A stretch of DNA of 63,578 nucleotides, counting the filler, from Globobulimina sp. (taxonomy: Eukaryota): the NCBI GenBank assembly GCA_003354225.1. It is 35 parts of 35 records of this genome, joined end to end, with 100 filler letters (N's around TTAATTAATTAA, not from the genome) between each part and the next. Parts side by side here need not be neighbours in the genome. Positions count along the whole stretch, not along the records: positions 30,942 to 32,660 come from PIVH01012733.1; 34 more parts are not named here. One strand, given 5' to 3'. Shown one piece after another: positions 7,468 through 59,942 of the stretch; positions within the stretch are counted from its first letter, which is position 1; each line of letters begins with the position of its first letter. The translations under genes and the position numbers were made by a program. A model generated the notes under the pieces. That model was not told the origin of the DNA and made no database searches. It saw only the letters and a list, made by a program, of their open reading frames with translations.

Positions 7468-8611
7468 ATGACTTACACAGAAGCAGAGAGCCAAGCATTA
7501 TCAGTTGTAAGTATTATAATGAGTATAATATCATTAGGCTGTTGCTTATTTATTATATTTTGTTGGATTGTATTTGAAGATCTTCGCAAATTGGCCTATG
7601 CTTTCGTGTTTTACATGGCCATAGCAACGACAATAAGACAGTTTTCTAAAACATGGGGTGGTAATTTCAAACAAGATAACCCGTTTTGTACCATACAAGC
7701 ATTTTTAATGGTATATGGTGGTTTATCCACATTTTATTGGATAATGTCAATTGCGTTAATTATGTATACAATGATATTCCATCCATTCATATGGCGTAAA
7801 GAACAAAACATCACTAAATATAATAAAATATCATTAGTCGTAAATTATTCAGTACCATTATTATTTGCATTGCTTCCTGTATTCACTGATAGTTACGCAC
7901 CAACCGGAGGTATGTATATATAACATATGGTATACAAAATTATTTGCGTTGTTGGCAACAGGTTGGTGTTGGATAAGTGGACAAACAACAAAAGGCAAAA
8001 TATTTCGATGGGTATCATTTTACGGGCAATTAGTGGTAATATTGACATTTTGTATTTTTGCGTATTGCCGGATATATTTTTATTTGAAGTTCAGCAAAAA
8101 CGCTTCGGATTTAAAGAATACGCATAAAATGTATAATAGGATTAAATTTTATCCATTATGTTTAGTATTGGGCTTTTCCGTTGCAATGATCCGTAGATTC
8201 ATTGAATTATGGGATGTAGATTTGGGTTTTGGTTGGGCGATGGCCACAAGTGTCACAACTGGTTTATTCGGATTTTTTCTATTAATGGTTTATGGACGAT
8301 TGGGTAAATTAAGTAAATTATTTAAAGCAAAATACGCATTTTGTGTGCCTATATGTGATGAAATGTGCTGTTGTTTGGGAAAACATAATGATGTGATAAC
8401 TGAAAACGAAACAACAAATACATTCTATGATGAATCGAACAAAAAAGAAAAAAATAAGAGTGTTGCAATTGTGAATTTAACTGCGCCAAATAAAGCTGGT
8501 ATAATATTATCAGAAGTAGAATTATCTGAGGGTAAATTGAAAGTGTTGCAAGAATCTGCAAAGCAAATCAATGAACATAACCCAGAAAAAGAGACTATTG
8601 CTCATACATAA
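7468..8611 (+). CDS. cAMP-receptor-like (CAR/GCR1 family) 7TM GPCR; intron 7910-7961
   Basis: Seven hydrophobic segments, FCTIQAFL, spliced GGWCWI, RIKFYPL. Confidence 0.85.
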
Positions 8612-11226: not shown

Positions 11227-11570
11227 GTGCTGAGTAATGAGGTCTGAGGACTGAGCGTGGGGCTGTTTCCAACGCTCGAATTCTCTTAACTCCAGATATA
11301 GTTGATTGGTTGATTGGTTAAGTGATTGTAATTATGGATTTATCCTATATTTGCAAAATAATTGGACACTCCATGTTTCGACAATCGTAACATTTTGAAA
11401 TTATAACTATAATTTACCTAATCAACCATTCAACCTGGAAACTATTCAACGAGGTCTGAACTCAGTCCTCATTACTCAATCCTCAGCACTCAGTCCTCAG
11501 CCCTCATTACTCAATCCTCAGCACTCAGTCCTCAACCCCCACTACTCAGTCCTCATTGCTCAGTCCTCGC
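11223..11570. repeat. Nested inverted arrays of short tandem repeats: (CTGAGGA/CTGAGTA)n, (TTGATTGG)n, (AATCAACC)n, (CTCAGTC/CTCAGCA)n
   Basis: tgagtgctgagtaatgaggtctgaggactgag; gttgattggttgattggtt; aatcaaccattcaacc; ctcagtcctcattactcaatcctcagcactcagtcctcag. Confidence 0.85.
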
Positions 11571-11850
11571 TACCCGGTCCTGATAAGTGCCTTCCTCTTT
11601 TCAATCTCTTTAATTTCTGCAACTCTTCAAATTTCAACAACAGTTGGATCCATTCACGAAACAGGGGTATCAATTGATCGGGTGCCTTCCGGTGAATCGC
11701 ATTCATCTTCAGCCTGTTTTCCGCTTCAGCAAGCGCATCGGCATATTCCAGGCGTTCAGGTTCCATAGCCAGCAGGTGTCGATAAATTTCCACAACTTTT
11801 TCCCAGTGGCCCTGGTCGGCATAAACTTTTGCCATTGTTTCTGTGTATAT
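11560..11850 (-). CDS. Small bacterial TPR-repeat protein; 5' end fused to unrelated AT-rich sequence
   Basis: YTETMAKVYADQGHWEKVVEIYRHLLAMEPER is one TPR; composition changes abruptly near 11850. Confidence 0.7.
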   Translation of the reverse strand: MYTETMAKVYADQGHWEKVVEIYRHLLAMEPERLEYADALAEAENRLKMNAIHRKAPDQLIPLFREWIQLLLKFEELQKLKRLKRGRHLSGPGSED

Positions 11851-16881: not shown

Positions 16882-18106
16882 TCAATCATCTTCATACTCA
16901 TCTTCATCCTCTTCATCACTTACTTGTTCACACAATACATCCAAATAATCTTTCTCTAAAAAACCTAAATCCTCCCTTGCCTCTGCAAATTCGCCTTCTT
17001 CCATTCCTTCACCAACATACCAATGAACAAACGCCCTCTGACTATACATCACATCATATTTCTTACTTATTCGTTCATTAAACACCCTTGAAATGGCAAC
17101 GTTATTCCCGATCATAACAACCTGTCTCATTGTCTCTGCCAAATCATCCCCATCCAACACAACCGGCGTTCCATCATTTAACCCAACTTTAAAACCAGTC
17201 GGGCACCATTCCACAAAGCTCACTTTTTTATTCGCTTTCAACCATTGCACAGTGGCATTCGCCTCCTTTGCTCGGACTTCACCGCTATAGTTCACAGAGA
17301 TGGCCATATATTTATCCTCTTCGGCGTCAAAATCCATAATTCTAAAACTTTTCAGATTAACATCAAAACTAATATCCATAACACAACACTCAACTTTGTA
17401 AAAAAATTGGTGCCACAAAAACAAGTTTCTGTGATATTTTGAACAAACAAATTATACGTTTCCATCTTTTTTGGTGTAGTGATGGGCGCCATTGAGGTTA
17501 CCATAAAATGCAATCTTGGAAAGGGCACCAAATTCGTTTGATACTCATTAGTATTCACATTCAACTCACCTTCATATCTTAGTGAAGCAGTAGTGGATGA
17601 TATCGTTTTTGTAATCAATCGATTCAAATTATTATACGACGGCTGTTTTATATCCAAATGTGTCTGGCAAATTTCATAAATTGCTTCGTTATCCAATACA
17701 ACTGAGATCTCTGTGTGGTCCAATAACCAATGAGTTGCTAATAAGGCATTGTATGGTTCAACAACACATGTTGATATTATTGGTGATGGATATACTTCGA
17801 ATCCACACTAAATACATAATATTATGCATGCAGTGCATTTAAAGTGAATACAATAGTTTTAACTTTTGATTTCTTTCTGTAATCCACAGCAATGCGTTCC
17901 AAGATTAATGCTCCCAAACCGCTGCCGGTACCTCCACCAACAGAATGATTGAAAACAAAGCCTTGAACATTATCGCAGTTATCCACCAACTTTCGTATGC
18001 GATCATTGACTTTGTCAATCATGTCTTTACCGACGGTGTAATGTCCACGGGCAAAATTGTTGGCTGCGTCTTCTTTGCCAGAGAGTAAGAATTCATTGTT
18101 GTAGAT
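16882..18106 (-). CDS. Divergent alpha-tubulin (retarian alpha2 type), 5'-truncated; introns 17808-17863 and 17342-17394
   Basis: [65 protein letters not shown]; divergent [16 protein letters not shown] and [11 protein letters not shown]. Confidence 0.95.
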
Positions 18107-19926: not shown

Positions 19927-20889
19927 NNNNNNNNNNNNNNNNNNNNNNNNNNNNNNNNNNNNNNNNNNNNTTAATTAATTAANNNNNNNNNNNNNNNNNN
20001 NNNNNNNNNNNNNNNNNNNNNNNNNNATTATGTGGAGCCTTACTAACGTTTTACATTATTTTGGCTCGTTTTTTCAGGTTTTGATATATTTGGATATCTC
20101 CATCAATTGTTTATGGTAAGTACTTATCTTACATTTTTCAGAAACCTCTTACTTAAATTTTATATGGTTAGAATTTGTATATAATTTGCACAAAATATTT
20201 TTTATCCTCAGGGTTAATTTAATCATCACATATCCGAAACATCCAAATTAAACTTATCAAAACGTTTTAATTTTGACATGTTAAATTTTGATCTATTCTT
20301 CAATTATCTAGAAACACGCATAACAACATACTTTTTATTGGTTGATAATCAGAGATTGTAATAGAGTTTGAAAAATATGCAAATTCTCACCATATGATTG
20401 TATTTTATCTAATTTGTGATCATGATTTTCATTTGCATTTTGAAGTTTATTTCTTATGTTTGCGTGGAACGATCCATTGTATACGAAATTGTGCAAACCG
20501 TGTTCTGTATTGGATAGTTTCTGTTGCTCATCGTTGACAGAGTCGGATAGCGATGTCAAGCAAATGGAAAAAGAAATCGAGTCGCATCATTCAAATGAAG
20601 TAGATACTAGTAATAAATTACATTTTCATTCTTATGCTGTCGAAACTACTCTAACCACTCAAACCAGCATACCCAATGATTCCAAAGCAGAAGACACTAA
20701 ATCCAAATCCAAATCCATTAATATCGAGATACCTTAATTCAAATTAATGTTTTTTTTAATTATAAATAAATTAAATTTTTATATTTTCAAAAGATTTAAT
20801 TAACTTTCAAAGGATTTAAATTTTTATATTTTATGTATTTTTGAGTTGATATAATATTTGTGCGTGTTATAAGTTATAAGTTATATATA

Positions 20890-27434: not shown

Positions 27435-29022
27435 CTACGTAGGGAATACACCATGTTCATCAACATCAGCAACTCCCTGCAACCTTCTTTCTAGTGATGA
27501 TTCTCTTATTTTATTTGCAAAATTACCATCACCATCATCCTCATCATCATCTATTGTCTGTTTTTTCTTTCCATAATGTTTTCTTTTATTATCAAGAGTT
27601 GATTTCACAGAAACCGCATACGTTTTGCTCATATTCAAAGCATGTCCACCATGTTCCACCACATCAATTCCGGACCTTTCCAATTCCTCAGAGACTCGCA
27701 ATATGTTTAAATATCCCATTGTCCCAAATAACAAAATGCCATTCAACAATGCCCATCCTGCAACAACCACAATTAATAACAAATTTGTTGCAAACCTTTG
27801 ACCAACACTTGTTTCCGCATATAATGTTTCTGGATAATGTGCAAATTTTAATGACTCACTTGTAGCAAACAAACCAGCAGCTAACACTCCCCATATTCCA
27901 CCAATACCATGCACCTTTGATTCATATTGATATTACAATTTAAAAATGAATATTATATTTATTATCGGTACATTGCACTTAACTGCAAATGCGTCCAATG
28001 GGTCATCAATTTGTACATATTTGGAGATCATAAGTCGTGACACCGCATAATATAACGCAGAACCAACGCAACCAATAAAAATGGAAATACCTGGACTCAC
28101 AACTGCGCAGCTTGCGGTTATGGAGGCTAATGCGGCTAAAATACCATTACATAATTTGGGAATATGCCATGATTTATGAAATATTCTTGCTAAAAGAGCA
28201 GAGGTTAACCCTCCAGATGCTGCTGAAATGGTGGTATTGACTGCAATTTTTGATGCTAACTCCATCGAGTTATTTGTCTGCAAAGTTGAGCCACAATTAA
28301 AGCCATAAAAGCCAAACCATAAAAAAAATAGACCAACCACTTGGAAAGGTACGTTATGACCAAATTCAAATTGATGTTGTAACTCTGCATAATATTTAGA
28401 TTTCGTAGCCGCTAAAGACTGATCAAATCGGCGTAAGCGCGGCCCAACAAAATAAGCTCCGCAAAGACCAATAAATCCACCAACCATATGGACGCAGGAA
28501 GAGCCCGCAAAGTCAATGGCGCCGCCATAAATTAATACTGAATCATTAAATGGCGACAACCAACCGGTCGAGGACCAGATCCAATGGACCACCTACACAA
28601 TAATATGAAAGTTACAATTAAAATTGCAGCAAAAATACAATGGACATACTATGGGATATGTCCATGACGAGACCACAACAGTATATATAAAATATGGCTC
28701 CAATCGGAATCTTTCGGCCACTGCACCGGATACAATGGTTGACGCTGTGCAGGCAAATGAACATTGAAAAAACCAATCGTGGAAGTTTTCATTTTCTATT
28801 AAAATGTTTTCTACGCCCATAAAACCATTGGCATTGATGCTTGTTGGATCACCTTTTGTTTATTTGCAAAAATAAACACTCTGCAATGCATTCTGACACT
28901 CTATATATATACAAAAACAACATGACAATTAACATTCACATACCATATGCCACACAATAACCTACAATCCAATACACAATGGCACAAATTGCAGCATCCA
29001 TTATATTTTTAAACATAATATT
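27435..29022 (-). CDS. amt: Ammonium transporter (AMT1 family), 5'-truncated; introns 28853-28943, 28593-28649, 27915-27983
   Basis: WFFQCSFACTASTIVSGAVAER, DFAGSSCVHMVGG, LWFGFYGFNCGS, IDDPLDAFAVHG. Confidence 0.95.
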
Positions 29023-29391
29023 NNNNNNNNNNNNNNNNNNNNNNNNNNNNNNNNNNNNNNNNNNNNTTAATTAATTAANNNNNNNNNNNNNNNNNNNNNN
29101 NNNNNNNNNNNNNNNNNNNNNNAAGAAATTGAATAAATATTTAAATCACTATCTGAGACCTTGGCATGGGAGACCAAATAAGGTAGTTGTAAGTAACAAG
29201 GAGGAATGACGAAAGGATTTTACTGTGAGCCGATTGGTTTTATCCCATTTTAATCCTCAGTTTGGAATAGATGAAATGTATCCAATTTAAGATGGGGCAA
29301 ATCTCCAAGAGAATATTTTCTTGGGCATCCAAGCAATGTACGTGCTGTCGTTTTACAAAATAAACAGCAGGAAAATTACAAATTTGCTTCA

Positions 29392-30006
29392 ATGAAAGAC
29401 TTAGGAGCGATGCATTTAAAGATAAGCCACTATAAATTATCCCAGTTATGCCGTACAAATATGGAATATGCCGGATATTCATTTAGTTTCCAGAATCAAT
29501 ATTTGTATAAAAATGGAGTGTGCGATTTGGTGGATGAACAATGGAAAGAGTTCCATGTCAGTTCTTACGGATTCAGATACTTTATCTCAACACGTGGTAG
29601 GGTTAAAAACATCAAAGATAATAAAGAAAAATTATTAAAAACACAAATAAAAGGAGACTACCCAAATTTTGGCATTTATTTCAATGGCAAAAGAAAGCAC
29701 TTTGTGGCAAATCCGAACAATTATTCAGTGTTGGACCATATTGACACTAACAGACCAAACAATAATTCATCGAATTTGAGATGGGTGAAGGATGCACTTG
29801 AAAATGCCAGCAACAGCATAACCCGTCGCAACATATCGGAAAGCGTCCAAAATAAGCGAAAAGTGGAACAGATTGATCAAGTCTGTGATATAGTTATTAG
29901 GGAATGGGACCGTGCACATACAGCTGGTAAGACATTGAATATATTGAAAGCTTGTCGAGGTGAAAGCAGAACAGCATACGGTTATAAATGGAGATTTTGC
30001 AACTAA
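29392..30006 (+). mobile_element. NUMOD4-HNH-NUMOD1 homing-endonuclease-like ORF, probably degenerate
   Basis: EQWK..YFISTRGRVKN, VLDHIDTNRPNNNSSNLRWV..EN, KVEQID..IREW..ILKACRGESRTAYGYKWRF; the usual VHRLVA motif is missing. Confidence 0.8.
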
Positions 30007-30941: not shown

Positions 30942-32660
30942 ACTTGAAAAAATGTAACGTCTTTTCCCGACATTATCGCGATCGAACTGATGTGGAAACT
31001 GCGCGTAATTTATATTATCATAACAGCACTACAAACACACATAAATATGGAACTGACAAAGCAAATGATATGAAAAACGACAAAGATATCATCTTCCAAC
31101 AGGAAATCGACAAAATCCATTCGTATTTTTTGCATTCAACGCTCAAATTTGGCAAAGGCAAATTTTTACAAAATGACAACAGTTTAGGTTTTACGCAGAG
31201 GAAACATGACATCAATGTTGCTGCAAAAGGACGCTCCTTCAGCAAATACGAGAATATTAACGAAAAAAAAGAATCTGCGATGGATATTCTGTCCAAAAAA
31301 CTCACAAAGTTAAAAGCGATATCACCAAAACCAAAAGCAAGAAGTATTAGTTGTGGCTCACTCGAATGGTCTGAAATAGTATTAAAAGCGCGCAAATTTG
31401 CACATCAGTCATCCTTCGAAACGCCCAAACCCAGTCATTTTCGGAAGTGCTCCACTTTTGAAATAAATACTCCTCGATTACCCAAGCGAGACTCGCTAAA
31501 ATTCGCCAAAACCGCAGGGGGTCTCCAGAGTCCTCTAAGTTCGTCGTACAGTGAATTAGAAGAAGAGCAGGAAAACGCGGAAAATTATGTCGGTGTCTCA
31601 TCGGATATGGAGTGGATTTCGCAAATAAACGAATGCGACTCAGATGAGGAGATTTACAATAAATTGGTGCAATTTTGTGGTATATTTCGCTGGCAAAACG
31701 CGCACGGATTTCGTAGTCGACATTTTCAAGGTTTGCATCATATCCATGCTCTATTTAAGAACATCAAAGAGGAGGTACTGCGCAATACATATCATGCCAT
31801 AACCATTGAGAATTGGAACCAGACCCTCCGTAAATCGAAAGCCTTTCATCAGTCCTGGGCTGCAGCAAAAATCCGCGCTTTGTATGACGGCGAGTTTGAG
31901 GATCAAATAACGCAACGGAGGTTTGTCTGGAAGCAGTATGATCAGATTGAATTGGCGGAAATTGTCACACTTAAGTTATATACACCGCTATTTTGACAAA
32001 TTGCAATCTGAGTGTTGCTGCGTATGTGTTGTTGAAAGGTTATATACCGATTTTGATAAATTGCAGTTCGAATTAAAGAAATGTTTTCGTTGAGAATACA
32101 CGCAAGAAGTTATCGAAAGGCATCAGCAAAATGACAAACTGCTCGAGAACGACGAGCATAAATATGAGCAAAAAGACGATATGGACAGAATAAGTATTGA
32201 CAAAGCAGCAAAGATCGAGTTGCAAAATAGATTGAGTGAGTTCTACCATTGGAGGCAGTCTTTGGTGGTGATTTTGAATAAGTATGGACATAAAATTCGA
32301 GAATCGGACTGGAATTATATTTTATACCACGGCGTGAATGCAAAAATGATCTTAAATCCTGCGCAAACACCCGCTTTTTATGGACCTTTATCGACTTCGT
32401 CCTCTTTCCATGTGGCGCAGACATTTGCTACCGATGCGGGCATGGTACTGACGATAAGCTCACAGTATCCACGATTGGGTGTCTGTCGCGCGTTCGATGC
32501 GAGTCTGATCTCTGACTATCCGGAGGAGCAAGAATGGCTCATTGGATTTATATATACGCGCATTCGCAAAATCCACACGAAGCAGGCCTTTGAATGGAAG
32601 CATTTGCCGCCAGCCTCGAACTTACGTTTTGTGTTTTTTGCACTGCATTTGTTCCGAATG
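30942..32660 (+). CDS. ADP-ribosyltransferase-fold (R-S-E-like) protein, truncated; intron 31975-32038; in-frame TGA at 32091
   Basis: Spliced LKLYTDFDKLQFELKKCFR, then LYHGV, GPLSTSSSFHVAQTF, GMVLTI, SLISDYPEEQEWL. Confidence 0.65.
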
Positions 32661-33558: not shown

Positions 33559-33641
33559 GATGACTATCTAGCTCACTTTAAGAAAATCTTAAAAAGTAGT
33601 TTTCCGCATTTTACATAATAATTTAATAAAGCTTGCAAAGA

Positions 33642-34479
33642 ATGACAGATAAACCGCCAATCGTCATAGACAATGGAACAGGATACACCAAGATGGGCTA
33701 CGCAGGCAACAGTGTGCCAGATTACATCGTACCGACTATCATAGCTCAACCAAAGAAGAAGTCGGGATCGCGCCGTTCAGACACCTCAGATTTGGAGTTT
33801 TATATTGGCGAAGAAGCCATGGGGAAGCGCTTAAATTACCAGGTCGAGAATTGTTTGGCCCACGGCATCATCAACAATTGGGACAACATCGAGAAATATT
33901 GGCAACGCTGTTTGTTCCAATATATGCGCTGTGATCCCGAAGAACATTACGTATTACTTACGGAGCCCCCACTCAATCCACCAGAGAACAGAGAGTATAC
34001 TGCCGAGATTATGTTCGAAACCTTCAACGTGCCCGGCCTTTACATCGGCGTCCAGGCCGTATTAGCCTTAATCGCCTCGCGTTTGAGCAAAAACGCCGAA
34101 AAAGTCTTGACTGGCACTGTTATCGATGCCGGTGACGGTATGTCATGATAATATGTTGCGAATTTGCGCTGCAATGCATATTTTTTCATACTTTCTAAGG
34201 TGTAACGCATGTTATCCCAGTGTCTGATGGGTATGTGGTCGGTTCGTGCATCAAACACATCCCATTGGCGGGCAGTGACATCACCAAATTCATCTTGCAA
34301 TTGTTGCGTGAACGCGGCGAGCCAATACCTCCCGAAGACGTAAAGTTGGTGGCTAGCACTGTGAAGGAGCGGTTTTGCTATACGTCGCCGGACATTGTCA
34401 AGGAATATTTGAAGTATGATGCGGATCCCTCTCGCTTCCAAACCTACGAAGGGAAGCATCCCAAAACCGGCAGACCGTA
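33642..34479 (+). CDS. ARP3: Actin-related protein 3, 3'-truncated; intron 34138-34199
   Basis: [65 protein letters not shown]. Confidence 0.97.
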
Positions 34480-40330: not shown

Positions 40331-41151
40331 ATTAAGGAATTCATTCAACCTGCCATTCATTTATTTCCTTTTTTGACAACAACCAACGACTGAGGACAAA
40401 GCAAGGTTAGTTTTGGTAAAAAGCAAAATTGTATACATCCATAATATTATTTGTGAGGCAAATAAGCCTGACATGGTTTATGTCTGAGCAATTGCTTATC
40501 ATTCTCTCTTTTGCTTTCTCTTTTATCAATATACAGCACAGCTGTGTAAACATTTAGCCATACAACCACTCAGTCAGTCTACCGTCAATTATTTACAATT
40601 TGTGTACATACAACAACACATAAAATGTATATTTATGCCCTTATTTTCGCTTTCTATTGAAAAAAGCTTGCATTTATATATTTATTTTATGCTTTTGTGT
40701 GCATTAAATTGTATAATTTTACTGGAGTCAGATTATACAGAGGTCAACCATTTCCTTTTTCCACACATTCCTATTGTGTTAAATTGCACAAAACCTGCAA
40801 TTTTTCCCAAACTTCCTTTTGTGGTATTAAAGAATACTACAACTTTCCTAAACCTTATTGTGTTGGAGCACAAATTTGGTTTCAAAATTCCTTTCCTATT
40901 TCCTGCATAATAATTTGCAAAAATACAGATTTTTGTGATTATATCTGCAATTGGTTTACAAGTGATACTGTAGTGTATATTTCCTGTGTATACATTGCAT
41001 TTCAGTTACATTCATTCTCTCTTTTTCCACAATTTTGGGGTTTCAAATTTGAAGTTTTCACAAATTTTGAAAAATTTCAAAAATTTCCTTTTCCTATTTT
41101 CAAACTTACCTATTTCCTGGTAACTATTGAAATTACATATTTATATTCATC

Positions 41152-47212: not shown

Positions 47213-48878
47213 NNNNNNNNNNNNNNNNNNNNNNNNNNNNNNNNNNNNNNNNNNNNTTAATTAATTAANNNNNNNNNNNNNNNNNNNNNNNNNNNNNNNN
47301 NNNNNNNNNNNNCATCTTTTATCATGGAAGCAGTCAACAAGTCCGATCCTGTTCAATTATCCAAATGCGATCATCAAATGATCGTAACATCACTCAATTA
47401 AGTATCTATTTCTGTTTCTATTCACACATTTATTTGTTATACTTTATAGTGATATGGTATTATTGATGGATGGAATTGGCTGGAGTTTGTGGTTATCGTG
47501 GTCTGGGAGGAGGTGGTGGATACGCGGGTGTATAGGATGCGGATGTGTATGAACCTAAATATTCTTGAAATATACAATTCGATGTTGATAGTTTTGGTTG
47601 TAATTGGCTGTCATTATATAGCTCTAAAATGTGTGGGGTGTGTGGTATTTGACGCATTGCTTCATCTGATTTTTGATTATGTGATAAATACGGCGTGTGT
47701 TGGATTGCATGGGTGGAATGTTGCTGTTTATGTTGGCCATTTTTTGTTGTTGTTGTTTTGTTTTTTGTCGTATTTTCTCATTATAGATTATGTTTTCTTT
47801 GTTGTTTATGTTGTTTGATAAATCGCTTAGTTTCTTGTTAACTTTCTGACTATCGATAATATAATATTTCTGTTGCGATTAAAAAATGTTTGAGTCTCGG
47901 ATTTGATAGCGTTAAATATATAATCTAATTGTCTGAGACTATCGATTTCTGGGTATAAATATGTATGAATAATACTAATAATTGCTCGTGTTTGTATTGC
48001 CTCTCTTGTAAATTGTTCTATTACGCGATATGTATTTACAGTGTATGTTTCCTTTTCTGACCCTCGTTGTGGTCCGATAAAATATGGATAAATTTGAGTA
48101 ATATGAGGTGAGTCAAATACCACGTCGGCGAGGATAACTAACAATAATAAGTAAAAATATGTAAATGTTATACGGAAGATTAATAGCAGTTGATCCTGAA
48201 TCAATAAATTGTCTTTGATAAATTCAGTTTTTTCTTCTTGAAATGCACAAAGTAATGTTTTGAATGATAATCCTTGACAAAATACGTATATTGCGTTGAA
48301 TCTAACTCTGCGCAATTCACTGTATAATTTTTGTATCCTCCAATTTAATGATCTTGGAGTGTAATAATAAATATGCGTTTTGAGTTTATTGCTATGATTA
48401 TCAATGGTGAATATCGATTTTTTTATTTTAATTTCACTTTTAATCAATTCCAATGTCCTCCAAACGACGTCTAATGACTATATCTTTGATTTTATTTTTG
48501 CTTTTTTTTTATTTTTTATTGCAAAATCGCCTGTTGTTTTTGAGATTGCTTTCAAACTAAGATAGCATATGCCTATGTTACATAGATGTTTCGTATGTAA
48601 ACCGCTATCGTAGTTTAAAAATCCAATCTCCGCTAGAAGTGATTGAAAAGGTGACATGCTTTTAACTTTTTAAGCTTCAGCGTTAGTTGACATTAGTCAA
48701 TTGCTTAGGATTGCTTAGTCAATTGCTTAGACCGGTGTGATCATACATAAGATCATACCTTGATCATACATTCCAAAAATCATACTATGACTTGTACATA
48801 GTTGCAATTTATGACTACAATTTAGTGGAAAAGTTCCTCCATACTATTATAGTCATAAATGTATGAGTTATCCCTGCT

Positions 48879-48990
48879 GTATCTCAAAAGTACACATATC
48901 TCAAAAGTGCATATATCTCAAAAGTGTATATATCTCAAAAGTGAACATATCTCAAAAGTACACATATCTCAAAAGTGTATATATCTCAAA
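48879..48990. repeat. 17-bp minisatellite, about 6.5 copies of ATATCTCAAAAGTRYAY
   Basis: Directly visible tandem array. Confidence 0.9.
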
Positions 48991-50049
48991 ACTGTTTTTT
49001 AAATGCGGGCGACCCGTGTGGTTGTCCATGTNNNNNNNNNNNNNNNNNNNNNNNNNNNNNNNNNNNNNNNNNNNNTTAATTAATTAANNNNNNNNNNNNN
49101 NNNNNNNNNNNNNNNNNNNNNNNNNNNNNNNTGCGGCATTTGCAGATTGGTTAATAAAATATGGTGGTAAAGCTGAGGGAGATGGTATTATTAAGGAACT
49201 AAGGGATGGAACGTGGTGGGCACAAAGAGAAGAAATATTATCAAAAAAGAAAACAAATAAAAAGCAAGAAAAGAAAGCAAAGCAGTTTTAACAAAGAAGC
49301 ATCACAAAGTCGAGGGTTCGGTACATATGTACCAAAATCAGGGTTATCGCCGGAATTCTGTCGATTGCCGGAGTTCTCATTGGCAAATTTCCCGGCTGTT
49401 GGTTTTAATTTTGGTGCGTTTGAATTGCCGCCAACACCAACCACTGAGCCACCTCCGCATTATAATAACAACAATAACACCAACAACAATATTTTATGTC
49501 CATTAGATACGAATGCAGTTTTATCTGTGGCTGCGAATAAAAATGATAATTGTGAGTGGAGGGCGTGGGGCCCGCCAAAAGTGGGCGTTTTTTTGCAGAA
49601 TATGGCACCGTTCGTGCAAGGTATTAGTGAGCAGTGTGTGTCACAAAATATTGGTGGCTCATTATTGCCAGATTTAAACAGTGTGGATTTGTTTATAATG
49701 GATTTGATTACTGGGGTAAGCTCACCGGTTTATTTAGCAGCAGGATGGAGATATTTGTTAGGAATTGAGCAGACATTTGTCTATAAATTTATCGCATTGT
49801 GGTGTTATTCGCATGTACAACATGCTATTGCTGGGCATAAAGTGAATATGACAGAGCTGCAGAAATCTGATCCACAAAAATTATTTCTAAAATTTACAAG
49901 CGGCATTATGAAATATTTGAAAAATTCTTTGACACCATATGAAATATTATTACATATTAATTCGTTGTATTTTATCTTATCAACATATTCAATTAAACTA
50001 CATTCAAATGGAATGGTAGATCATCCATTTAAAATCGGTACTCATCCTC

Positions 50050-50219
50050 GCTGCGCAAATACATCACGGCATCGATACTCATTCTGCCGCTTAAATATAA
50101 TACGGCATTGATTCCAGTCTGCGACATTTCAGCCGCTTAAATACAAGACGGCATCGACTTTCTCGCCGCGAAAATATGACACGGCATTGATACTATCCTC
50201 GCCGCGCAAATACATCACC
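50050..50219. repeat. Five degenerate 27-nt repeats GCCGC-NN-AAATA-N4-ACGGCATYGA with variable linkers
   Basis: Units start at 50050, 50086, 50132, 50165 and 50201. Confidence 0.8.
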
Positions 50220-51032
50220 TTTAATAGTCACTTTTATGTTGTTTTTATAACTGAGTTACATAAAGAAACCACACCAGTTCTTGAAACTACACCAGTTCTT
50301 GAAACCATACCAGTTCTTGATACCGCCACGTGTTTCGTCGACCAGTTTTGGATCGATGTCATTGGTGATGATGATGGGGTGACTGATCTATGCTTTTGCG
50401 TCGACGAAATTCGGTCGAGAGGATGGTATCAAATCAAAAGTTTTCTAGTATCAAGTATCAAATATCAAGTATCAAGTATCAAGTATCAAAATGCAGTAAA
50501 AATAATTTATATAAAATAGGAACTCTGTTTTTGTATCACGAAAAACGAAATTGTACATAGAATAATAATATGCGTACTGCAAATACCATTAATTTGCAAA
50601 TATAATATGGACAAATAGAAACAATATACCGTCGTATGACAATGATATACTGTCAGATAGAAACAATAATAAGATATTTGCTGGACATTTGATACCATCC
50701 TCTCATACAGTCTATATTTATTAGACTAATCGAATAAATGTTTAATTATATCAATCATATTTATGTTGAAAAGGATATAATACAGAATTACCTACATTTT
50801 TTATATCATAAAGTTTTTAGAAACCTTGATATCGTTGCTGGGACGAATAANNNNNNNNNNNNNNNNNNNNNNNNNNNNNNNNNNNNNNNNNNNNTTAATT
50901 AATTAANNNNNNNNNNNNNNNNNNNNNNNNNNNNNNNNNNNNNNNNNNNNAAAACAGCACAGAAACGCTATAATTAAATATATTCTGTGCTGTATAGTGA
51001 TTATCGATTTTCCATGAAAAAATTAAAAAAAC

Positions 51033-55365: not shown

Positions 55366-56190
55366 CTAAAAATAATCCCATTGACCATCAAATATTCCAC
55401 GACCTGTTTCATTTATCTCGATATTGTATAATATTCCAGCGACGTGAATAAGCTTTGGTAACATAATCAAAGCATTTTGACACATTGGTCTGTATCTTTT
55501 AACTAAATTATATTTAGCATAAAATGCGTTAGCAAATGTATGCTCAATTTCAACTTCAGCAGAGCTGACATGATAACTCCACAATTTTTCTTGTCTTGAT
55601 AAACGAGACCAAGCTCTTGGATTAATTGCTCCACTACAGATTGGCGTAATAATATCTGGAAAATCTGGAGCATTAAATCCACCATCTGCAACCATCTGAC
55701 CCAATCTCTGGAAAACTCTGTTCCGCTTAGCTTGGTCATGAAATAATGTACAATTTCTCAGAACATTAATATCATGAACTGCACAAGGCCAGCCTGTAGA
55801 CATGAAACAAATCTTACCTGTAACCCTCGCCATTATTACTAGTGTTTTTAATCCATCGCCATGGAATTTGTGAGAATAACTGAACAACAATACAACATGT
55901 CAATATTTTTTTATTGAGTAACAAAACAATACAACATTTGCAATATGTTTTCAGTAACTTAACTAATTTTTTTTTTCACAAAAATTCAAAACAATTGGAA
56001 GTGGAATATCAGTCGCATCAATTACAAATCTTGCCAAAGGTATTGGTGCCATCCGTTCCTGTAATCTCATGTCAATTTCATTCATTTCATCTTCCGCAGG
56101 AAACCTAATTTCCAGACGACAATCTTTGGCTACTAGCCCCAACACCTCATTCCATGCTCTCCAAACACAATTCTTTGTAAAAATTCCATC
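55366..56190 (-). mobile_element. PIF/Harbinger (DDE_Tnp_4) transposase; intron 55880-55963
   Basis: IRFP..FVIDATDIP, YSHKFHG..LK, GWPCAVHD..VL, VADGGF, IITP, VEIEHTF. Confidence 0.85.
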
Positions 56191-58297
56191 AATATCTTTG
56201 TAAAAATTCTGAGACAATGAATCTCTTATGAAACCACACATTTTTGATAACGATGTTCCAGAGGCATATCTGCGACCGTAGTTATGTTTTTGTTCATAAT
56301 GCACATNNNNNNNNNNNNNNNNNNNNNNNNNNNNNNNNNNNNNNNNNNNNTTAATTAATTAANNNNNNNNNNNNNNNNNNNNNNNNNNNNNNNNNNNNNN
56401 NNNNNNTTTGGATTTGTTTTATTTATGTCTGGAATTCACATTATGTTTGTTTTGAAGCAATCATGCTTCTTCACAGCACTTATGATGGCACTGTTTCTTT
56501 TTGTGGTTCCTCTGGAATTAATTGATCGCATTGGCCTAATTCTTTCAGCTCATTTAGTGATTGGATTTGTTTATTTGCCACTGTTACTCCGCAGACTAAT
56601 GCGCAAAATATATACGACAATATCCACGTCGCAGTAACTAATTTGTGAATATTATTTGTATGGTCGCATACAACATATACACCGATACTCGAAATAATTG
56701 CCCAAAATATCATTTCTAAATTGAATACATATCTTAATGCTTGCAAATAAATCGCCAAATATGATTTACATTTTGAGCGTCGCGATGGTGTCATTGTGGC
56801 AGTCATCGAAGCAAATTAACGTATTACCCCTTTATTTGTTTGATTCATAATGTGGCATTATTATAATTATGAGTTCACAAATCACAATCAAACAAATGTA
56901 TGCTAAACAAAAACAAAATGTGTATTATTATTACAATGGTTATTATTTTTATATTGATTGCTTGCAATTGTTTCTTCTGAGTCGGTGTCATAAATTTCAT
57001 TGTTTGGATCCGTATTTTCTTCATCTGAATCAAAAACATTTACATCCATATAGAAATTAGCTGCATCTGCCATTTTATCTGTATTTCTTCTTTGATAGTT
57101 GTCATATCTTTCTTTTGTGTTTTTGATTGCGTTTAATAGTTTGTTTTTAATTTTGAGTGTTTGTTGCAATAACTTCTTTTTATTACAATCCTTTTTGGTT
57201 TAATATTTGAATGAATATACTTATTATAATTATGAAAAATGTATATTATAATTAACTTTAATATTTGAAGCGTTGATGGATTGAGTTTCGAGAACGAATG
57301 TTTTTTCCTCTGTATCATATCGAAAATTACTGTCATTGTTATTGCCCATAATAAATACAAAGCAAATATTTAATAAACTGCGTTTTGTAATTTTGGATTT
57401 ATTACATTGACGTAAATATTGCGTAACAAAAGGATTTTCCCACAAACATTCCCCATACTTACAGCAGCATATATTGAACAAATTACTGGATGATATGTGT
57501 GTTGCTAGTTACATGCATGATACATAAAAGATTTGGATGATAGTCATAATTTTTTGCAACAGTCCCAAAATTACCACTGCCGTTTTTATACTGAATATCT
57601 GTCAACGATGAGTTTTGATACACAACCCACCACATTTTCTGTGCCAAATAATACACGCAATTCTTCAATTTATTAGGATTTCGCTTGATTTCTTGAAAAT
57701 ATTTTTTGGTTTATAGTTTATACAGCTACTGAACTGGAAATTTTAAGAAAATGAATGACTTGGAAGAGCAAGAAGAAGGAGTTCCAAACGACTTACCTCG
57801 CGAATTATGGAGGACTGTGAAAACCAATAAAACAACAATTGCTGTTTATGCAGTGTCTGTTGCAATATCAGCGGGTGTGATTTTAACCCAACGAAAAGTA
57901 ATCCGAAATATGAATAATGAAACTAAAGAAGATTAAAAGTAAAAAGTTTGTGGATTTTGGATCTTTTTTGAATTCGTCTCTACCCATAAACCTATAACAA
58001 ACGTGTACAATAAGTAAACAATTGTAAACAAAAAAAGAACAAAACAGGAACTATGGTAAACAAGTTTTTTCGTTCTTTTCCAAAAACACACTCTCGGTAC
58101 AAACACCATGCTTTAGTCCGAACANNNNNNNNNNNNNNNNNNNNNNNNNNNNNNNNNNNNNNNNNNNNTTAATTAATTAANNNNNNNNNNNNNNNNNNNN
58201 NNNNNNNNNNNNNNNNNNNNNNNNAAAGTTACTCACTTCATTGATTTCCTCTGACTGAAAAAAAGCTAGGTGCGCATAAAAAAAAACACCTTTTATC

Positions 58298-59942
58298 ATG
58301 GCACAAGAACCACAATCGCTGTCCCAAATCTATAAAAAATTCACAGATACATTCTCAGCCACTGAGAACCCACGCGATGTGGTGCTATTTGCGAAACGTA
58401 GACTCAGTGTGGATTTAAAATATGGCGATGTCAAAAAATTTCTGACTGCGAAAAGTTATTTTATTGTCCAAATCACTTAAACTTTGCTGCCATTGACATA
58501 CCACAACTGCAACAATGCAAACAGAGAAATGGGATGAACGCGTTTGTGAGCCGTTGGATAGCGATTTTGGGCAAGATTGGTACTGTGAAACCGTGCAAAC
58601 TACCTCCTCTTATCAGAAATGGTTAATTGATTGCTATTTCAAACAAAAGCATCACACGACCTGTTCCTTAGTCTCGTTGGGCATTGTATTAAATGCCAAA
58701 TTGTTGTCCAATTATTATTTATCCCAATACGATGACAGTGACACAGACGATGACCACGTAGGCGACGAAGAAAATAAAATTGAATTTGAGTTCGACAGTG
58801 ACAACGAAGAAGATCTCACCACTTTAAAATCGCATTTGCCCTTTCTAACCGAGTCCAAATTGATCGATATATTTCCAAATTATTCCTCGCAGCTCACCAT
58901 TGATCGCGTCTTAGTGTCCGGTATGAGTCTGGATGAGATGGCGCAGGTTTTGCTAGATTTTGGCTGTAAATCGGTAGACATACAACACTGCGCCGACGAC
59001 GATGCCGGCGGCTGTGATATATTCAGACAACGATGCCGGTCCATTTTGAGCACGCATAACATGGATATCGATGGTGCTATCCTTTGCAACTTTGATTTGT
59101 GGGATTTAGAGACTGGGATAGAAGGCGCCGGCGGTACTTATGGGCACATCTCACCGATCGCAGCCTATCACGAAGAGAGTGATCGCGTGCTGTTATTAGA
59201 CACTTTTACGGACGAATCGTGGGTGAAAATTACAGCATTGTATGCTGCGATGAATACAAAAATCAAAGCCGGCGGCAAAAGTGATCCATATCGAGGCTAC
59301 GTTGTGGTGCATTCGCCGCCGGTATGGAGAGGCGATGTGGGTACAAATACGAATGCGAATGAGATTGATTATGAAGGAAACGATACAAAACCTCGAAATC
59401 ATATGATACAAAACGAGAAAGTGAGCGTGAAACAGCCGCGACGGAGAAATCATAGTTCGATCGATTTTGATTTTATTGTGTTTGATGATAAACGGGTTCT
59501 GAATGGCAGAACGCAGCAAAATTATAAACGAAAAAGCTCCCGTCGACGCAGCAAAAAGTTGGAATTATATGTCGAGTTTGACAGTGAGCCGGGACAACTT
59601 TTATGGAAACAAACACAAAGTACACAATATCATCAGAAATGGTGTGTGGTGGAATATTTTCAACAGAATAAAGGCAGTACATCGGCATTGGTGACATTTG
59701 CCATTATATTGAACGCAAAGATTATGGCTCATCAACATAATAACAATGAATATGATTATAAAAATATGGAGGATAATGATGATAAGTTTAATGAGGAAAA
59801 GATTATGGAATTATATGTTAAGTGTTATAATGAAAAGGAAAGTGGTCACTTACCCAAAATAACGGATGTTATTAACAACGGCGTGTCGTTGGAAGAAAGT
59901 GGAGAGATTTTGAAATTATTTGGGTGTAAATCAGTTTCGTTA
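58298..59942 (+). CDS. Phytochelatin-synthase-like (papain-fold) protein with two tandem PCS domains; intron 58455-58524; truncated
   Basis: Q..TTCSLVSLGIVLNA, GMSLDE, GHISPIAAYHEESDRVLLLD, RGYVVV; second copy STSALVTFAIILNA..GVSLEE. Confidence 0.88.

Follow-up and report, generated by a model that had tools for sequence, protein, structure and literature searches.

The window, by which we mean the whole 63,578-nt stretch of DNA analysed, consists of 35 contigs of 1,718-1,721 nt each, sorted by descending length and separated by 100-nt linkers (44 N, TTAATTAATTAA and a further 44 N). Because it is a set of joined contigs, genes lying side by side in it are not genomic neighbours. The assembly is very fragmented and GC content ranges from 0.26 to 0.39 across the window, which is probably foraminiferal in origin, since the closest named relatives of the gene described below are foraminiferal. 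This gene occupies the contig at 30942-32660 (1,719 nt), where two coding blocks on the plus strand flank a 64-nt stretch at 31975-32038, a probable spliceosomal intron. Exon 1 (30944-31974, +) is a single frame open to the contig start at 30942, and its 3' end, AA, supplies the first two bases of a Lys codon, so that the intron would lie in phase 2. Exon 2 (32039-32660, +) is open to the contig end and encodes an ART-like domain. It also carries an in-frame TGA at 32091-32093 (+), 53 nt 3' of the junction and at a Trp position conserved in the family, which an earlier sequence-only reading of this DNA had missed. Elsewhere in the window, a candidate 62-nt GTATGT..AG intron at 34138-34199 interrupts an actin-family (Arp-like) gene at 33630-34479 (+; Pfam Actin, E = 4.7e-43), and a 243-aa ORF at 29275-30006 (+) matches NUMOD4 (Pfam, E = 1.8e-6, above its cut-off) and, weakly, HNH_3; judging from these matches it is a homing-endonuclease-like protein, a kind typical of phages and mobile introns. 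Satellite-like arrays lie at 11441-11580 (period about 7/14/21 nt), 48863-48998 (17 nt) and 50050-50323 (33-46 and 18 nt).

The gene has a large set of relatives. A phmmer search with the exon-2 part of the protein, with X in place of the TGA, returned 453 representatives at E <= 0.001, 49 at E <= 1e-30, the best of them 67% identical. Sixteen representatives were looked up: eight are EukProt transcriptome proteins of Bolivina argentea and Nonionella stella, and the other eight stem from ENA contigs or a metatranscriptome-type catalogue. Exon 1 was used to search the named transcriptomes at "longer" and "near" lengths; nothing exceeded 78% identity, so orthologs are not among the named-transcriptome proteins searched.

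The sequence-only reading had called this an ART-like gene, which is a fair label as far as predicted features and weak fold matches go; membership of the ART superfamily is unproven, with no Pfam ART match behind it. The language-model features indicate ART clusters, with 176 features in common and a score of 0.96, and a structure model (pLDDT 82.6) gave Foldseek matches to Tpt1, ExoS, LT, ART2.2 and Arr in its top rows, the best at E = 0.036 and none at E <= 0.001. VIA returned Z scores of 7.4-5.2 to diphtheria toxin, KptA, Arr, ART2.2, C3 and Certhrax, all below the tool's level of 8. The majority of the best structure matches are thus to ART-fold chains, and weak. Tyr-His-Gly, Ser-Thr-Ser and Glu-Gln-Glu, which we take to correspond to the ART motif definitions, are present in the usual order. 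Feature clusters, weak fold matches and motif order link the host gene to the ART superfamily. It differs in having His where arginine-specific ARTs have Arg, in the length of the family proteins (855-1,070 aa, including large conserved flanking regions without a known function), and in its lack of sequence matches to Pfam and to solved structures: the exon-2 part hit no Pfam family at E <= 0.01, a sequence search against solved structures gave no match, and of four relatives searched at E <= 5, P0001 and P0004 matched nothing while P0008 and P0015 matched unrelated sub-cut-off families, none of them ART. We take the host gene to belong to a large ART-like family, probably foraminiferal.

The 64-nt stretch begins with a copy of the exon that follows it. 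Gapped local alignment reproduced the geometry given by the sequence-only reading, at the same coordinates: 26 of the 27 exon bases at 32039-32065 (+), the first 27 nt of exon 2, recur identically at 31975-32005, the upstream copy differing by one C/T mismatch and two 2-nt insertions. The longest exact stretch shared by the two copies is 16 nt. Not one of 20,000 shuffles of the 64 nt reached the repeat's alignment score of 35 (top shuffle, 30). Adjacent 64-mer pairs scoring at least 35 numbered 37 of 7,964 in the window and grouped in six loci, namely the repeat itself, the satellite-like arrays near 11418, 48840 and 50044, an AT-rich stretch near 20721 and the internal repeat of another intron near 55847. 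Chance is excluded as the cause of the repeat.

The coding frame behaves as the same reading had described. Unspliced, it runs into a TGA at 31994-31996, as claimed; with 31975-32038 deleted, both flanks of the 1,719-nt contig lie in a single frame, the TGA at 32091-32093 remaining. The joined flanks fit ten relatives gaplessly across the junction and read "..EIVTLKLYTDFDKLQFELKKCFRW..", the motif as it had been given. Upstream, exon 1 aligns with relatives gaplessly up to "..EIVTL", and six relatives match it in tblastn. Owing to the repeat, the 64-nt gap can be placed at ten equivalent positions, and solely at 31975-32038 does it have GT..AG ends; this placement, which also restores the reading frame, is what a spliceosomal intron calls for. 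The 5' junction reads AA|GT and the 3' junction AG|GT, and the intronless form reads AAGT. The 5' half of the putative intron (31975-32005, +) is exon-like, a decayed copy with two 2-nt insertions of a segment that encodes Lys-Leu-Tyr-Thr-Asp-Phe-Asp-Lys-Leu-Gln, and its resemblance to family coding DNA may extend to about 32013. The 3' half (32006-32038, +) is T/G-rich, has CTGCG at 32018-32022 and ends in AAAG. GC content of the 64 nt is 0.38, next to 0.40 and 0.42 in the flanking exons. A longer candidate intron, 31975-32119 (145 nt), which would also take out the TGA, was rejected: it would delete the conserved motif and is seen in no contig.

We next turn to the relatives, which the sequence-only reading had proposed to check for absence of the intron; none of those examined has an intron at the site. 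The five related metagenome loci (L001-L005) are all continuous over it. One of these, L002, carries a foraminifer-type gene and must be genomic, since other parts of its ART-like domain contain two introns (1815-1880 and 2005-2060), short and T/G-rich, which lie before "FATDKGM" and inside "EEQ|EW" and are absent from the host gene. Among 150 representatives, 51 span the site unbroken with at least 20 residues on each side, some of them from ENA, NCBI and Logan contigs; 94 do not contain the motif as defined. The remaining five start at the motif and were discarded as evidence for an intron, being uninformative proteins that start at internal Met residues. The contig-derived proteins P0003, P0004, P0018, P0162 and P0156 likewise lack an intron here. 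P0018 and P0162, from short ENA contigs, match the end of exon 1 at 78% and 71% identity, respectively. Both read through the site without a break and, after "ATDKG", finish in unrelated tails that appear to be run-on into another intron. On the sequences compared, intron positions vary within the family, and the position at 31974|32039 is so far unique to the gene in the window.

Presence and absence of the 64 nt could also be compared between sequencing runs. Ten runs were listed, and contigs (not reads) of four of them, X1, X4, X6 and X7, none recorded as RNA, were compared. X4 (depth about 5), probably the source run of the assembly, retains the 64 nt in an unbroken 1,087-nt contig covering 30976-32062. 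X1, a run with another organism label, yields a 2,719-nt contig that skips exactly 31975-32038 and differs from the window contig at nine letters over 1,655 nt (about 99.5% alike). The identical 64 nt are missing from the X6 and X7 contigs, whose likeness to the window contig is about 95%. The intron-bearing form is found in the window contig and X4 only, that is, in one sample.

The make-up of these runs bears on how the joined form should be read. Their longest contigs measure 11.9 kb (X1), 11.3 kb (X6) and 4.8 kb (X7), as against 98 kb in X4. The X1 and X6 contigs extend beyond the window contig by 860 and 821 nt on the upstream side, and that of X6 by 729 nt on the downstream side, about the span to be expected given that relatives measure 855-1,070 aa. 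Depths of family members spread widely in X1 (2.9-122) and are fairly flat, more DNA-like, in X6 (15-45) and X7 (10-20). As contig shape and span fit transcripts, the intronless runs look like RNA, and in our judgement, from contig size, span and depth spread, there is a good probability that X1, X6 and X7 are so. Splicing of 31975-32038 is accordingly graded as likely, not proven, because no run without the 64 nt is recorded as RNA. Of the 93 differences to other runs, 40 were listed, and 33 of those 40 fall at third codon positions and 32 are synonymous; on this ground the gene line is, by its sequence, under purifying selection.

The TGA at 32091-32093 can be set against the same material. 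Ten aligned relatives have Trp at this position in six cases and otherwise Leu, Tyr or Phe. X1, X6 and X7 have G at 32093 and so read TGG (Trp); X4 has no cover there, its contigs ending at 32062 and resuming at 32094. This break adjoins the variable base, a hint that the source reads vary at 32093 or cover it poorly. The window contig also differs from X4's own contig at 31777 and 31798, from all four runs at 32474, and from X1, X6 and X7 at 31316 and 32174. Leaving out the TGA, six of the seven other listed differences to X1 are synonymous. We infer that the TGA is a variant or an error of a low-depth assembly and not the sign of a dead gene; together with the differences at 32474, 31316 and 32174, it suggests that minor alleles or errors entered that assembly. 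Decoding of TGA as an amino acid was set aside, as three runs read TGG there.

For comparison with introns of the same genome, we collected 15 other short GT..AG stretches that join two long ORFs and contain a stop when read through; these are candidates, among them 17808-17863, 28593-28649, 34138-34199, 40879-40928, 49498-49556 and 59137-59203. They measure 50-107 nt, a range that includes 64 nt. Their donors include GTATGT, GTTAAT, GTTAAA and GTTAAG, and the GTTATA at 31975 resembles the last three. Candidate GC is mostly 0.14-0.37, and the 0.38 of the 64-nt intron, above most, is exon-like as expected if half of it is former exon sequence. CTGC[AG] occurs in 6 of the 15 candidates, 26-37 nt from the 3' end, with 1.5 expected, a statistic that is inflated because the motif was spotted by eye and post hoc and that serves as a lead only; in the 64-nt intron CTGCG lies 21 nt from the 3' end, as against 26-37 nt elsewhere. 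The motif is a possible marker of the branch-site region.

Likeness to a flanking exon recurs, more weakly, in 2 of the 15 other candidates by the gapped test. In a candidate 66-nt intron at 57191-57256 (-), the last 13 nt of the upstream exon are repeated 13/13, 8 nt before the acceptor, a match found in 3 of 2,000 shuffles; this may be a second intron with a copy of its flanking exon, in a layout that would fit the classical duplication model. In a candidate 52-nt intron at 7910-7961 (+), 12 of 13 bases match exon sequence located 37-50 nt before the donor, a match equalled by 19 of 2,000 shuffles and out of register with the splice site. A gapless repeat scan of the window revealed no other exon-copy introns among the 20 families listed. 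An imperfect internal tandem repeat (ATATTG..ATGTTGTATTGTT..) lies in a candidate 84-nt intron at 55880-55963 (-), so that introns here are lengthened by local duplication as well.

The sequence-only reading had taken the 64 nt for a duplication whose first copy became an intron. The copying stands for 31 of the 64 nt; the other 33 nt bear no significant likeness to the continuing exon. Compared with that exon, 32006-32038 scores 14, a value equalled by 647 of 5,000 shuffles. Searched for elsewhere in the window, it found only itself on the plus strand and a best score of 26, at chance level, on the minus strand, and no locus in L001-L005 reaches a score of 24. Two further matches of this half were rejected, a weak and roughly collinear one to 32081-32093, which is not significant, and a 15/21 inverted one to 32205-32225, treated as chance.

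The copied half itself makes 33 matches to the coding DNA of the distant relative L001, compared with 31 to its own exon, and without its two insertions it reads on as ..Gln-Ser-Glu (..GAC AAA TTG CAA TCT GAG). A paralog contig in X1 (307 nt, depth 122) matches 31990-32011 with one letter different, past the point where likeness to the own exon ends. The first 9 nt of the copy (GTTATATAC) fit the own exon, and L001 and the X1 paralog have TTG TAT. Since the copy matches L001 coding DNA as well as its own exon, a paralog may be its source. A simple duplication of the own exon, as first proposed, holds only in part: the intronless AAGT lacks the classical AGGT, and the copy fits the coding DNA of a distant relative equally.

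The identification of 31975-32038 as an intron, in turn, is supported by its GT..AG ends, the conserved motif restored, an ordinary length and the 64-nt skip in contigs of three runs. The explanation we favour, at a little better than even, is that it is a true intron, specific to this gene lineage and acquired in a local copying event. According to this model, a GT-AG intron in phase 2 would be removed at 31974|32039, restoring the conserved motif with which the catalytic domain starts. It would stem from a local insertion in which the first 31-40 nt were a copy of the segment now at the start of exon 2, or of a paralog's equivalent. The copied exon sequence would have supplied the donor GT (AA|GTTATA), and the acceptor AG, with an intron-like 3' half, would have arrived with 33 nt of unknown origin. 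The copying itself may have been done by error-prone break repair or by a partial tandem duplication that then decayed. A bolder version, tentative and rather less probable than the intron gain itself, is that this is a neo-intron close to its birth in a foraminiferan and not yet present in the nearest sister lineages, that repair copied a 30-40-nt coding motif, its own or a paralog's, and filler became a working 3' half, and that such gain by local copying is ongoing in Foraminifera. The ongoing part is suggested because intron positions differ within the family and two other candidates are weakly exon-like. Should X1, at 0.5% divergence, be DNA, the insertion would be very recent; against such youth, one substitution and two indels already separate the copy from the exon, and the insertion's other half cannot be recognised.

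Two possible lesions on the window allele, the 64-nt insert and the TGA, speak against intron gain and lead to the main alternative, which we think unlikely but take seriously. Here the inserted 64 nt would disable the gene, the allele being a dying one or a young pseudogene; they would be a product of templated error-prone repair whose GT..AG ends are coincidental, and the contigs without it would be genomic DNA or transcripts of intact alleles and orthologs. The TGA lies on the same contig, at a conserved Trp that three runs read as TGG, no run with the joined form is recorded as RNA, and the family-member depths in X6 and X7 are flat; gene death should moreover be common in a family this large (453 representatives at E <= 0.001). 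However, of the ten equivalent placements of the gap one alone has GT..AG, the one that restores the frame, a coincidence that we put at roughly 4% as an estimate, not a computed value, and the 3' half has the CTGCG and T/G-rich tail of other candidate introns. The differences to X1 other than the TGA, six of seven synonymous among those listed, do not suggest a decaying gene either, and the X4 contig break at 32062/32094 hints that the stop itself hangs on a variable or poorly covered base.

A somewhat less probable reading keeps the intron and has its exon-like half copied from paralog coding sequence by ectopic repair or conversion; a paralog origin changes the mechanism and not the nature of the intron. 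The 33 matches to L001 against 31 to the own exon, and the X1 paralog contig that covers 31990-32011 with one other letter, are what recommends it, but the margin is just 2 matches in about 40 nt, and in a large family with a conserved motif and AT-biased codons some member will fit by chance. Moreover, the first 9 nt (GTTATATAC) fit the own exon and neither L001 nor the X1 paralog. Least probable of all, and in our view quite improbable, is an artefact of assembly or amplification, a stutter or chimera in one low-depth sample. The assembly is indeed very fragmented, X4 has a depth of about 5, the intron form occurs in one sample, and the window contig disagrees with the runs at 31777, 31798, 32474, 31316 and 32174. 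Yet an independent assembly of X4 has the same 64 nt in its unbroken 1,087-nt contig, and the longest exact share of 16 nt is too short to mislead a 31-mer graph, the word size that Logan assemblies presumably use. From a stutter one would also expect a faithful copy, whereas the 64 nt are a half-copy with indels, bounded by GT..AG and provided with an intron-like tail.

Intron gain by local copying, if that is what happened here, would matter because gained introns with a readable source are the main evidence on how introns arise. To our knowledge, there is no study of intron turnover in Foraminifera. The locus would add a rhizarian example, and, if the intron is real, a latent donor within a highly conserved motif was usable without protein change. 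Should the 64 nt prove an unspliced insertion, the locus is merely a young pseudogene allele in a large family.

Among known systems, introner-type transposons bring one splice site and use the target-site duplication for the other. The putative intron resembles such insertions in consisting of an insert plus one copy of a duplicated target. It differs in that the insert measures only 33 nt and has no terminal repeats, and no second copy of the insert occurs in the window or the five related loci.

Recent gains with a readable source are scarce, with "few proven cases" according to PMC4974935. Examples of gain by tandem duplication include vertebrate ATP2A1 (PMC3265369), a potato RdRp gene and, in fission yeast, 24-bp repeats (as cited in PMC4974935). 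As in these cases, part of the intron copies the adjoining exon, the donor GT comes from former coding sequence, splicing would leave the protein unchanged and relatives lack the intron. In contrast to the tandem-duplication (Rogers) model, only 31 of the 64 nt, not the whole intron, are copied here, the other half has no recognisable source and the copy is possibly paralog-derived. The intronless site, moreover, reads AAGT and not the AGGT described in PMC4974935 and PMC3265369, so the acceptor AG would not come from the duplicated exon.

The neo-introns of Daphnia pulex, as described in PMC4202315, were made by repair of staggered double-strand breaks and have repeats of 4-12 bp. The repeat here is longer, 27-31 nt, and has indels, and the Daphnia cases, unlike the present one, come with population polymorphism and RNA evidence. 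The layout is nevertheless shared, one exon's end being repeated across the intron with an insert in between: the putative intron opens at its 5' end with a repeat of the first 27 nt of exon 2, and 33 nt follow. Presence and absence between close lineages, as in Daphnia, is possible for the 64-nt intron too. If our reading is right, the intron would represent a mixed mode, with its donor from copied exon and its acceptor from filler, that lies between the tandem-duplication and break-repair models.
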